DNA from: Gammaproteobacteria bacterium
GTDB taxonomy: Bacteria; Pseudomonadota; Gammaproteobacteria; Eutrophobiales; Eutrophobiaceae
Reading direction: 5' to 3'
DNA: 64,000 nt
Assembly (NCBI GenBank): GCA_030829955.1
Contig: JAURNY010000018.1
Location: 94,377-158,376 of the forward strand
In this document: positions 32,461 to 34,575 of the stretch, in pieces
How the letters are laid out: each line of letters opens with the position of its first letter
How positions within the stretch are numbered: position 1 is the stretch's first letter
Notes under the pieces: model-generated
Seen by the model: the letters and a program-made list of their open reading frames with translations, nothing else
What the model was told of the DNA's origin: nothing
Database searches by the model: none
Position numbers and translations under genes: made by a program

Positions 32461-34575
32461 TTATTTTTTTGACTCTTCAGTTTTCGTTTCAACTGGTAAT
32501 GCTACTTTTTGCGATTTTGCTACACCATCTTCGCTAGAACCACCAATAATCAATTCATATTCACCGCTGATGCGTGTATCTCCGGTAATAGATTGTGATT
32601 TTGCAAAGTTAGCTATCTCGCTGTCTGAAACCGGATTTCCTTTGCTATCAACAATCTGTCCATTTTCATCAATACGATAACCGGACTTAGCAAGTTCTGC
32701 TTTACTCAGGACTTCACCGTTAGCAGAAGTGATTAAGTCATCCTTTTTTATGACGTTGCCATTCTTGTCAACGACTTCTCCATCTTCATTGATCATTAAA
32801 CCTGCAGCTGCCAATTGTTTTTTCGACATCACGCTGCCATCTGAAGCTACGACTAAACTATCCGAGTCAACTATGTTGCCGTCTTTGTCAACGATTTGAC
32901 CTTTTTCATTAATAGTCAAACCTGCTGCTGCTAATTTTTCCTTGCTGAGTACAGAGCCATCAGCAGCTATCATGACTTCATCTGCTTTCATGACACTGCC
33001 ATCAGATGCAATGATAAGTTCATCCGGGTTAACTGTATTTCCATCTTTATCAACAATCTCACCGTTTTCATTAATAGTATATCCAGCAGAGGCAAGCGCT
33101 TCTTTATTGGCAATGACATTACCATTGGCGTCGACCAGATTCCCTGACTCATCAATACCAGAGGCCTTTTGCATGCCGGCAGCCTGTAACTGCTCTTTAG
33201 TAATAACTGTTCCATCTTCAGCGACGACAATGTCGCTAGCGGGAATAACCTTGCCACTGGCATCAATAATCTCACCATTTTCATTAACGGTTAATCCGGC
33301 AGCAGTAAGTTGCTCCTGTGTCATAATCTTGCCGTCTTTACTAACAACAATATTATTCGCATTGACGAGATTACCATTTTTGTCAACGATCTGACCGCTT
33401 TCATTAACTGTTAAACCAGCAGCTGCCAGTTGTTGTTTAGTCATAACGGTTCCGTCTGCAGCAATCACTATATCTTTTGGATCCACTACTTTACCGTCTT
33501 TATCCAAGATTTGACCATTTTCATTTACGGTTAAACCGGCAGCGACAAGTTGTTCTCTGGCCATAATCTTGTTGCCATCGGCATCGATAAGATTACCGTT
33601 TACATCTACACCTGCAGCAGTTTTAGCACGTGCTGCACGTTCTTGTTCAGCGGCAGCCATTTTCGAAGCATTGCCAAACAAGTCAGCGGGATCAACAGAG
33701 GTAAAGTCCGAAGCACTTTCATCATGTCGGTTTCTTAATAACGAGACTAGTTCGCCTTTATCTTCCGCAAGGGTTATCAATGCTGCTTGTTCAGGTGTGA
33801 CTTCAATCGTAATATGCGAAAAACTGCTTTCAGAGCGTTGTTGCGGTTGGCGTAATCTATCCAGTGTTTCCTGATAAGGATCGCGCCCAGCCGCCAACAC
33901 AGTAATATTTTGTACAACAGGTATGACAACATCGCTGGGACTTAGGCTGCCCAATAAAGAGGTTGGATCTTCCAATGCACCAGATGCGGCTAATAATTTT
34001 TCAGGGATTTGATCCAATACTTCATCCGGTAATAACTCCAGTAAACCGGCTTCTTGTGCCTCGACAATTAATTGTGGTGCAAATCCGGAGGTAGAAAAGG
34101 GGATGTTTACAAACAAATCGACGCGGTTTCCCGGACGTAAAAAACCACCTATGGAATTAATATCATCCACTGTAATCGTCATTGCACGTTTGCCAGCTGG
34201 TATAATGTCAGAAAAGTCTCTTGGAAATTCCTGATCAATAAAACTCTTTAATAAAGTCTTACCCTTGCCTAAATTCGCAGTTAAAGCGCTGCCGACATAT
34301 TTTGAAAATTGATTTGGTGATACGGCATCGCCATGAATGAATTCAATCGGAACGGGACGTTGGCTAAAGTACTTCTCGCTGATTTCCTGTCCTTTCATCA
34401 AGTCAGCATTTGCGACCACAACCATGGCTTGTCTTTGCTTATTCTGCTCGTATTGCGCCTTTAATTGCTTTTCACGCGCATTTAAATAGAGCATTGCAAG
34501 AATTGCAGCGAAAATACCAAAACCGACAGCGCCAGCCAAAAGGGGGATTACACTTTTATTTTCTTTTTTAGCCAT
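32461..34575 (-). CDS. cpaB: CpaB/RcpC-like Flp pilus assembly protein with a long C-terminal tandem-repeat extension
   Basis: 704 aa. N-terminal TM helix plus SAF and RcpC/CpaB domains (about residues 1-300), followed by about 8.5 copies of a 40-aa repeat (AAGLTVNENGQIVDKDGNVV...DIVVA.DGSVMTK.QLA) and a ~75-aa C-terminal module. Confidence 0.8.
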   Translation of the reverse strand: MAKKENKSVIPLLAGAVGFGIFAAILAMLYLNAREKQLKAQYEQNKQRQAMVVVANADLMKGQEISEKYFSQRPVPIEFIHGDAVSPNQFSKYVGSALTANLGKGKTLLKSFIDQEFPRDFSDIIPAGKRAMTITVDDINSIGGFLRPGNRVDLFVNIPFSTSGFAPQLIVEAQEAGLLELLPDEVLDQIPEKLLAASGALEDPTSLLGSLSPSDVVIPVVQNITVLAAGRDPYQETLDRLRQPQQRSESSFSHITIEVTPEQAALITLAEDKGELVSLLRNRHDESASDFTSVDPADLFGNASKMAAAEQERAARAKTAAGVDVNGNLIDADGNKIMAREQLVAAGLTVNENGQILDKDGKVVDPKDIVIAADGTVMTKQQLAAAGLTVNESGQIVDKNGNLVNANNIVVSKDGKIMTQEQLTAAGLTVNENGEIIDASGKVIPASDIVVAEDGTVITKEQLQAAGMQKASGIDESGNLVDANGNVIANKEALASAGYTINENGEIVDKDGNTVNPDELIIASDGSVMKADEVMIAADGSVLSKEKLAAAGLTINEKGQIVDKDGNIVDSDSLVVASDGSVMSKKQLAAAGLMINEDGEVVDKNGNVIKKDDLITSANGEVLSKAELAKSGYRIDENGQIVDSKGNPVSDSEIANFAKSQSITGDTRISGEYELIIGGSSEDGVAKSQKVALPVETKTEESKK
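32611..33621 (-). repeat. in-frame ~120-bp tandem repeats (about 8.5 copies) inside the cpaB-like gene
   Basis: Repeated peptide units and matching diverged nucleotide units, e.g. 32880-32940 versus 33370-33430 (gtcaacgatttgacc...ttcattaa...aaacc.gc.gctgc). Confidence 0.8.

Follow-up and report, generated by a model that had tools for sequence, protein, structure and literature searches.

The CpaB/RcpC protein of a Tad/Flp pilus in a member of an uncultured marine gammaproteobacterial clade carries a long array of 40-aa units of the DUF3659 type, placed between its ring domain and its C-terminal hairpin and confidently predicted to be folded. This array is a clade-wide trait of CpaB that had not previously been described. 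We regard it as an evenly balanced proposition that the protein's L3 linker has been expanded into the array and that the array acts as a modular tether from CpaB to the secretin. Positions given below are those of the window, the whole stretch of 64,000 nucleotides that was analysed, and all the features listed lie on its minus strand.

The long CpaB protein and its repeat array

The cpaB/rcpC coding sequence occupies positions 32461..34575, stop codon included, and encodes 704 aa; the earlier note was silent on the strand, which is the minus strand. In addition to its place in the ORF list, the product matched the TIGR03177 CpaB profile over aa 12-325 (E 2.7e-37; 128 bits against a cut-off of 71) and, in two stretches, the Pfam RcpC profile (E 1.6e-21; 76.8 bits against 28.8), and a Foldseek search with its AF2 model returned RcpC (9gzr) as the best match (E 3.7e-11). 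Family match, fold and tad operon setting identify the protein as the CpaB/RcpC of a Tad/Flp pilus and, apart from the array, its core is that of an ordinary CpaB. The earlier description is hence confirmed as to both the CpaB/RcpC homology and the unusual extension by in-frame repeats. Neither the repeat nor the whole protein gave anything significant in searches of PDB sequences, and a profile search of the PDB matched only the D1 domain of RcpC (9gzr, E 0.0027). In silico excision of the array left the end of the TIGR03177 alignment unchanged, at model position 255 of 262; since the model does not extend to the hairpin, excision is uninformative with regard to an end-to-end alignment.

The hydrophobic stretch PLLAGAVGFGIFAAILAMLYL marks an N-terminal transmembrane helix (approximately aa 10-32; 34480..34548), modelled by AF2 as a helix over aa 9-44. 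It is followed by the D1 or SAF domain (aa 51-110; 34246..34425; Pfam SAF, 21.6 bits against a cut-off of 21), a region with Foldseek matches to SAF folds and FlgA, and by the D2 or RcpC domain (aa 121 to approximately 285; 33721..34215; Pfam RcpC). Within D2, alignment with short relatives revealed a subclade-specific helical insertion of about 55 aa (approximately aa 160-215), across which AF2 pLDDT drops to 59-68. A post-D2 helix (aa 296-314; 33634..33690), defined on AF2 secondary structure and kept in the alignment of short and long relatives, opens the L3-equivalent linker. At the other end of the protein, AF2 predicts two strands (aa 672-677 and 687-692) forming a C-terminal beta-hairpin (aa 672-692, YELIIGGSSEDGVAKSQKVAL; 32500..32562), the presumed secretin-docking element, with a motif conserved throughout the clade, in its short and its long members. 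Since the array lies between D2 and this hairpin, it constitutes an insertion into the L3 linker.

The array, delimited by repeat search, autocorrelation and a unit HMM and supported by Pfam and AF2, spans aa 320-660 (341 aa; 32596..33618), close to the 32611-33621 given previously. From its N-terminal end it comprises U1 (33544-33618; 25 aa, partial), the full 40-aa units U2 (33424-33543), U3 (33304-33423) and U4 (33184-33303), U5 (33091-33183; 31 aa, partial), U6 (32929-33090; 54 aa), the full 40-aa units U7 (32809-32928) and U8 (32689-32808), and U9 (32596-32688; 31 aa, partial). These are six full and three partial units or, as 341/40, 8.5 unit-equivalents, in agreement with the roughly 8.5 copies of a 40-aa unit counted earlier; the unit HMM reported 10 domains in the protein. 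An extra half-unit had been noted in one copy, and U6 is indeed enlarged, the insertion being a 14-aa duplication of its third sub-hairpin. The 75-aa C-terminal module proposed to follow the repeats (aa 630-704) was found to combine the last partial unit with the tail, and the non-repeat tail itself measures only 44 aa (aa 661-704).

Periodicity in the array is far beyond chance, with a DNA identity at lag 120 of 0.494 against 0.312 in codon shuffles (z = 12) and a protein identity at lag 40 of 0.346 against an expected 0.080 (z = 16). Third-position identity at a lag of 40 codons is 0.349, with a null of 0.286, so that the DNA periodicity is mostly a shadow of amino-acid conservation. In pairwise comparisons, full units share 53-72% of their DNA, below the 75-80% previously estimated, and 33-50% of their third codon positions, and synonymous sites in the array are near saturation. 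The longest exact direct repeat measures 14 nt, and Tandem Repeats Finder reported no repeat in positions 31000-35000 because the units are too diverged. At the protein level, a consensus of 431 units shows strong conservation of turn and core positions, with D14 and N7 as almost invariant polar positions.

The repeat had been thought not to be a named domain, but the array matches Pfam DUF3659 (PF12396) above threshold (98.1 bits against a cut-off of 24.8), a score summed over 8 stretches that are individually weak and flagged 'weak' or 'faint' among the precomputed matches. Since DUF3659 is a family without known function, the unit is not a repeat for which a function in CpaB proteins has been established. 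The only paper on DUF3659 found in the literature concerns the fungal lipid-droplet protein LdrD, and no link between DUF3659 and Tad pili was found described there.

AF2 predicted the array to be folded with confidence (pLDDT 87.6, pTM 0.63; per-region pLDDT 82-95). In the model each unit is a short helix followed by three [DN]G-turn beta-hairpin elements of the DUF3659 type, a predicted repeat of helix and short hairpins that lends no support to the beta-solenoid suggested earlier. A Foldseek search of the array model against solved structures returned no significant neighbour; its top matches, C-LytA choline-binding repeats (E 0.05) and the fibre shafts of adenovirus and reovirus, are not significant and resemble the array in being built of short tandem beta-hairpin units. 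A local match to the FlgE/F/G D1 domain (PF22692) at aa 499-542 (44 bits against a cut-off of 27; profile positions 25-62 of 64) reflects a 'dG-x-v' hairpin segment that shares the DG-turn hairpin motif with the array. This likeness is at the level of the motif: membership in the flagellar family was rejected on the grounds of a single partial stretch within one unit, the Tad operon context and the lack of a significant rod or hook fold match.

The Pfam scan of the protein detected no LysM, SPOR, OmpA-like, PG_binding or known Ca-binding repeat. Membership among peptidoglycan- or glycan-binding repeats (LysM, SPOR, choline-binding) was rejected on this result, on the low number of aromatic residues (1 Phe, 2 Tyr and 0 Trp in 341 aa) and on the non-significance of the C-LytA match. 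Canonical Ca-binding motifs (DxDxDG, dockerin and FG-GAP) were likewise rejected, as the D-K-D-G-N-V-V-D of the unit does not fit them and no profile matched.

Distribution in the clade and the tad operon

At least 374 homologues carry the array. A precomputed DUF3659 match was present in every homologue found, and all of them have the canonical C-terminal hairpin after the array. Of the 49 long CpaB representatives nearest to this one, 42 have between 1 and 9 units, whereas distant, canonical CpaBs measure 250-370 aa and lack the array; the earlier note had likewise described normal CpaBs as free of repeats. In an alignment with clade members of 369-447 aa, the array stood out as a block inserted cleanly into the span from the post-D2 helix to the conserved hairpin motif; in short relatives this span is a linker of about 60 aa that contains no more than a few degenerate hairpin motifs. 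When the repeat region alone served as the query, the homologue search returned a single match (P0273) among 33 candidates, a low yield that is probably an effect of repeat indexing. P0273 (149 aa, 'DUF3659 only') was discarded as a stand-alone gene after it proved to be part of a cpaB with a frameshift, in an assembly rich in indels.

Unit number differs among related genomes and shifts between species by in-register duplication and deletion, with indels between close relatives falling in the unit register and, in one relative (L002), an 85-aa super-unit duplication with 86% DNA identity. In comparison with a 75%-identical orthologue, also of 704 aa, identity is 77% in the array and 75% in the N-terminal domains, with similar synonymous-to-nonsynonymous counts in both, in keeping with an array that is under selection. 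All units, the irregular ones included, are positionally orthologous to those of this protein.

The ORF list and Pfam matches define a complete tad operon at 25420..38911, which opens with the flp pilin gene (38675-38911) and continues with TadG-like, 352-aa, 239-aa and 121-aa genes, cpaB, an 84-aa ORF, cpaC, an FHA-cpaF gene, tadB, tadC, a DUF192 gene, and genes for a TPR protein and a TadE-like protein. The cpaC/rcpA gene (30662..32161) encodes a secretin (Pfam Secretin, E 3.2e-41) with a T2SS-T3SS_pil_N domain at aa 21-88 (E 1.2e-12), and no CpaI-like gene was seen in this operon. The order of the tad genes is the same in L010, L014 and L015, and within these syntenic operons the CpaB of L014 has 0 units and that of L015 has 9. 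Compensation of array length by secretin length was considered and rejected, secretins measuring 432-506 aa across CpaBs of 370-835 aa.

The 84-aa ORF (32206..32460), whose start codon abuts the cpaB stop codon (TAA ATG), encodes a secreted protein with a signal-like N-terminus, a donor hairpin and about 40 variable residues between them. The hairpin, its only CpaB-like part, resembles the C-terminal hairpin of CpaB (BLASTP E 7e-5; hhalign probability 93.5%, E 2.4e-7), and a Pfam scan of the protein gave no match at all. The ORF is conserved in relatives and belongs to a family of at least 100 clusters. It was rejected as a CpaI-type adaptor, as it lacks the pil_N acceptor domain, and strict coupling to the repeats was rejected as well, the ORF being absent in L008 (708-aa CpaB), L014 (0 units) and L015 (9 units).

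The proposed role of the array and its alternatives

In the tether proposal, the L3 linker, running from the D2 ring domain to the secretin-docking hairpin, would have been expanded into a folded, acidic array that serves as a modular tether or pillar within the protein itself. CpaB would assemble as a multimeric ring, and copies of the array would join this inner-membrane-anchored ring to the outer-membrane secretin, performing in cis the job of the Caulobacter adaptor CpaI or that of the direct contact in Pseudomonas. In P. aeruginosa, the hairpin of RcpC completes the beta-sheet of the RcpA N-domain and is required for function, oligomerisation of RcpC is mediated by L3, and the modelled RcpA:RcpC span of 21 nm compares with a 24-nm periplasm, linkers being invoked for the difference (PMC12307814). 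In the system described here, the N-terminal pil_N domain of the secretin is the expected acceptor of the CpaB hairpin. Array length would be set over evolutionary time by duplication and deletion in the unit register, with no switching within a population. Among the roles envisaged in the earlier note, that of a periplasmic spacer is the best available reading, and it is the one we infer.

The occurrence of 0-9 units in syntenic operons, with secretins of steady length, makes a rigid axial spacer of fixed geometry hard to reconcile with the data, and the array may be flexible, loop out or sit at the periphery. In the AF3 model from Pseudomonas, a single secretin N-domain is contacted by both D2 and the hairpin (PMC12307814). 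The two ends of L3 could therefore lie near each other, in which case the array would be an excursion and not a strut.

An unlikely alternative to a tether is that the array is a binding module displayed round the machine, with peptidoglycan or other glycans, divalent cations or a periplasmic protein as its ligand. The acidic (net charge -26 over 341 aa), D-, N- and G-rich composition of the array would suit the binding of cations in a marine periplasm, the near-invariance of D14 and N7 and the non-significant likeness to C-LytA also speak for a binding module, and the range of 0-9 units would be easier to tolerate in a peripheral decoration. However, no wall-binding or known Ca-binding profile matches, the three aromatics in the array set it apart from typical repeats that bind glycans or choline, beta-turn formation accounts for the conserved N-G and D-G pairs, and there is no significant structural neighbour. 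The ligand- or peptidoglycan-binding array suggested earlier is thus not borne out by domain matches or composition.

We consider it quite improbable that the array is mostly passive, a neutral filler derived from repeat amplification that merely connects D2 to the hairpin. Such a filler would agree with the wide range of unit numbers across otherwise syntenic operons and with short relatives that function with a linker of some 60 aa, but it is at odds with the strong conservation of the unit sequence over 431 units from many lineages, with an array that evolves no faster than the ring domains, with its confidently predicted fold and with its maintenance in several hundred proteins.

A more elaborate version of the tether proposal takes in the 84-aa protein, and we advance it as a doubtful, speculative extension. 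Each CpaB linker would be a rod of up to 9 DUF3659-type modules, a fold not yet seen experimentally, and twelve such rods would surround the path of the pilus as a palisade or cage, replacing a CpaI-like adaptor and giving the Tad machine of this clade a periplasmic architecture of its own. The translationally coupled, hairpin-only mini-protein would compete for, or fill, docking sites on the secretin N-domains. A 13:12 mismatch in secretin:RcpC stoichiometry has been reported, and the mini-protein could fill the sites left vacant by it, regulating the coupling of inner- and outer-membrane subcomplexes. The series from 0 to 9 units would then represent an evolutionary ruler for envelope geometry.

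Far less probable is a contingency locus, in which 120-bp units would slip or recombine often enough to generate a phase- or length-variable CpaB within a population. The variation that had been suspected does exist between related genomes, where unit number differs by indels in the unit register and L002 carries its super-unit duplication. Within the population, by contrast, array length is fixed, old and stably inherited: the four distinct sequences of the 90% cluster all have 704 aa and differ by single substitutions only, and the identical protein recurs on at least 23 contigs drawn from many samples, mostly short-read assemblies in which the units are nonetheless diverged enough to assemble. 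Uniform length and a longest exact repeat of 14 nt do not support phase variation, and the divergence of the units, their near-saturated third codon positions and their positional orthology with those of the equal-length orthologue also count against it. As every change observed in the array is in frame, none works as an on/off switch. Membership among contingency loci was accordingly rejected on unit identity, the 14-nt repeat, the negative Tandem Repeats Finder result and the lack of copy-number polymorphism.

An artefact of mis-assembly, or of fusion between cpaB and a separate repeat-protein gene, for which no support was found beyond the initial resemblance of P0273 to a stand-alone DUF3659 gene, is effectively refuted by the agreement of independent NCBI, JGI, ENA and Logan assemblies on a continuous and identical ORF, by the 704-aa orthologue encoded in the complete long-read chromosome of L001, by the nature of P0273 as a piece of cpaB and by the canonical hairpin that follows the array in all homologues.

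Comparison with known Tad coupling systems

The coupling between the inner- and outer-membrane parts of the Tad machine is only beginning to be resolved, with a structure of RcpC in 2025 and in situ maps from Caulobacter in 2025-26. Species already differ in their solutions, and the tether reading would add a third one in this clade, a folded and modular extension of the CpaB linker in cis. The series of 0-9 units in otherwise syntenic operons provides a natural experiment on linker length and rigidity in the alignment complex. For DUF3659-type repeats, this clade also supplies the first bacterial setting in which the neighbourhood is defined and its function known, and the analysis brings to light an unannotated family of small secreted proteins carrying the putative secretin-docking hairpin alone.

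The closest structural reference is the RcpC of P. aeruginosa (9gzr; Evans et al. 2025, PMC12307814), whose gene adjoins the secretin gene, as it does here. Sequence similarity between the two proteins is weak. RcpC has 303 aa and an L3 of approximately 30-40 residues, whereas the protein described here bears a 341-aa folded array in L3 and the extra helical insertion of about 55 aa in D2. In Caulobacter, the adaptor CpaI makes the connection through a relayed donation of two strands, and the authors point out that Tad systems vary in how they link outer- and inner-membrane complexes (PMC13170226, PMC12637624). CpaB and CpaI jointly accomplish there the task proposed for the array, joining the CpaB ring to the secretin by means of two donated C-terminal beta-strands. 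CpaI, however, is a separate adaptor with a signal peptide, a pil_N domain and donor strands, whereas in this clade the extension lies in cis, within CpaB itself.

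Domain architecture and repeat unit of the long CpaB

The 704-aa CpaB/RcpC ORF (32461..34575, minus strand) presents a standard CpaB/RcpC arrangement in its N-terminal 320 residues, with matches to TIGR03177 (E 2.7e-37, aa 12-325) and to the Pfam SAF (D1; aa 51-110) and RcpC (D2; E 1.6e-21) domains. In the PDB, its predicted fold matches best to the experimental structure of RcpC from Pseudomonas (9gzr, E 3.7e-11). The D2 domain is interrupted by a helical insertion of ~55 aa (aa ~160-215; ~33931-34098, minus strand) of reduced model confidence (pLDDT 59-68), which is also present in the homologous protein P0135 and missing in shorter clade members.

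The tandem array lies wholly inside this ORF (aa 320-660; 32596..33618, minus strand) and encompasses units of 25, 40, 40, 40, 31, 54, 40, 40 and 31 aa; in the 54-aa unit the last sub-hairpin is duplicated (14 aa). The unit (consensus AAGLSVNENGQIVDKDGNVVDPNDLVVAADGSVMTKEQLA; near-invariant A1, A2, G3, N7, G10, D14, G17, G31 and L39) combines a short helix (KEQLAAAG) with three hairpin elements built on [DN]-G turns (NENGQIV, DKDGNVV and AADGSVM). The earlier note had assigned it to no named domain, but the array matches Pfam DUF3659 (PF12396) in eight stretches totalling 98.1 bits (cut-off 24.8), even though the individual stretches are weak. DUF3659 is a family without known function, and a fungal lipid-droplet protein was the sole context found for it in the literature. 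The FlgE/F/G D1 profile was hit by one stretch as well (44 bits), which we read as a common DG-turn motif and not as membership in that family. When the window was searched in six-frame translation with a profile of 431 homologous units, all ten domain matches fell within the CpaB ORF. AlphaFold2 predicts a folded array, both in the full-length model (pLDDT 82-92) and in isolation (mean pLDDT 87.6, pTM 0.63). With a net charge of -26, the array is strongly acidic, and it contains almost no aromatic residues.

The periodicity of the array is far above chance, with a DNA identity at lag 120 of 0.494 versus 0.312 in codon shuffles (z = 12) and a protein identity at lag 40 of 0.346 versus 0.080 (z = 16). 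The 75-80% DNA identity between copies initially estimated proved too high: full units share 53-72%, and Tandem Repeats Finder reported no repeat for the array. Third codon positions are 33-50% identical among full units and show only a slight excess at lag 40 codons (0.349 versus a null of 0.286). Third positions this close to the null indicate that the DNA-level signal mostly reflects amino-acid conservation and, together with the identity between units, that the repeats are old.

Insertion site, distribution and length variation

When the protein is aligned with 369-447-aa members of the clade, the array proves to be cleanly inserted after the post-D2 helix and before the C-terminal hairpin, predicted by AlphaFold2 at aa 672-692, whose motif [IV][DE][FL][IL]xGGxSx[DN]G[VI]A is kept in all clade members of any length. 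At the site of the array, these short relatives already have a few degenerate DGxVVDxxGNxI motifs of 7-14 aa, which suggests that the 40-aa unit was elaborated from a simpler linker of hairpin repeats.

At least 374 homologs of the full-length protein were identified, and all 120 among the matches listed combine RcpC and DUF3659 in 490-814 aa with the 40-aa period kept. Named carriers are all MAGs of uncultured Gammaproteobacteria, one labelled Legionellales and another Thiotrichaceae. Among the 4,877 CpaB cluster representatives yielded by an exhaustive search with the non-repeat N-terminus as sole query, the ~60 closest are mostly 430-900 aa long, and farther ones drop to 250-370 aa. Of the 49 representatives with a length of 420 aa or more, 42 carry between one and nine units, versus 3 of 101 shorter ones. 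The long CpaB is a genuine, previously undescribed variation on the architecture of a known protein, and it extends across the clade; publications combining CpaB with tandem repeats were not found. The tad operon provides a first functional neighborhood for DUF3659. A stand-alone "DUF3659-only" database protein was discarded as spurious; it derives from the broken cpaB of a relative's locus (L013; ena:ERZ10645735 contig_14538), where the cpaB-to-cpaC region is split into ORFs of 113, 149, 58, 80 and 58 aa, a fragmentation typical of indel errors in long-read assemblies.

The array is fixed in the organism of the window. The 90% cluster of the protein contains four distinct sequences, all 704 aa long and differing by single substitutions; at least 23 contigs, drawn from many samples, encode the identical protein; and the longest exact direct repeat within the array spans 14 nt. 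Each unit, irregular ones included, is closest to the same-position unit of a 75%-identical orthologue, also of 704 aa (0.70-0.88 identity, versus 0.45-0.70 off-position), and the array is as conserved in this orthologue as the N-terminal domains (77% versus 75%). The proposal of a phase- or length-variable component hence survives only between relatives, where array length has indeed changed over evolutionary time; the data lend no support to phase variation. In pairs whose N-domains are 93-98% identical, the arrays diverge by about one, two or four units. For the well-supported pair of P0003, on a complete chromosome, and P0009, on a 654-kb contig, the difference consists of clean in-register deletions. 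In another relative (L002, ~7399-7908; aa 467-636 of its CpaB, P0016), an 85-aa super-unit of one short and one long unit is tandemly duplicated (93% protein and 86% DNA identity), indicating that arrays grow by block duplication.

Operon context and the 84-aa downstream ORF

An 84-aa ORF (32206..32460, minus strand) abuts the cpaB stop codon with its start (TAA ATG). The N-terminus of its product resembles a signal peptide, the middle is variable, and the C-terminus shows homology to the CpaB hairpin (BLASTP E 7e-5; hhalign probability 93.5%, E 2.4e-7). The ORF is kept in most, not all, related long-CpaB loci. Its family comprises at least 100 clusters (45-117 aa), every one of them labelled hypothetical and returning no Pfam match. 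A CpaI-type adaptor was rejected as its identity because the donor hairpin is present and the acceptor domain absent. Speculatively, the protein could compete for, or fill, secretin docking sites.

Several other features of the operon, all on the minus strand, were noted. The CpaF/TadA ATPase (28949-30643) carries an N-terminal FHA domain, and no TadZ/CpaE (ParA/MinD-like) gene lies between it and the secretin, an arrangement shared by three relatives' loci (L010, L014 and L015). A DUF192 (COG1430) gene (26822-27172) sits between tadC and the gene for a TPR protein, and at the equivalent position in L014. Three genes between cpaB and the TadG-like gene (34599-36754) encode products of 121, 239 and 352 aa without Pfam matches, the first of which resembles a pseudopilin at its N-terminus (GQGMVEFIVV); L010, L014 and L015 share this set. 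The operon begins with a 78-aa Flp-type pilin gene (GQGMTEYIIIVALIAI; 38675-38911), and no prepilin peptidase gene was recognized among the scanned operon ORFs.

A putative tether between ring and secretin

Pseudomonas RcpC completes, through its hairpin, the beta-sheet of the secretin N-domain, a contact needed for function, and its linker L3 mediates dodecamer formation (Evans et al., PMC12307814). The secretin encoded two genes downstream of cpaB bears a pil_N N-domain, the expected hairpin acceptor. The best-supported reading, which we infer with roughly even confidence, is that the array would link the alignment ring in the inner membrane to the secretin, as a modular tether built into CpaB itself. 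Less probably, the array might be a binding module or neutral filler. A rigid-strut version of the tether is weakened, since secretin length shows no compensating change across 0-9 units, as seen in the syntenic operons L014 (no units, CpaB 370 aa, secretin 448 aa) and L015 (nine units, CpaB 835 aa, secretin 438 aa). Furthermore, one and the same secretin N-domain is contacted by both D2 and the hairpin in the model of the Pseudomonas system (PMC12307814); the linker may therefore begin and end at nearby points, which also weakens the rigid-strut version.

The natural series of array lengths offers a test bed for models of Tad envelope coupling. Published Tad systems differ in how ring and secretin are linked: in Pseudomonas the link is a direct RcpC-RcpA contact, whereas in Caulobacter it is relayed by the adaptor CpaI, which donates its own last two strands to CpaC (PMC13170226, PMC12637624).
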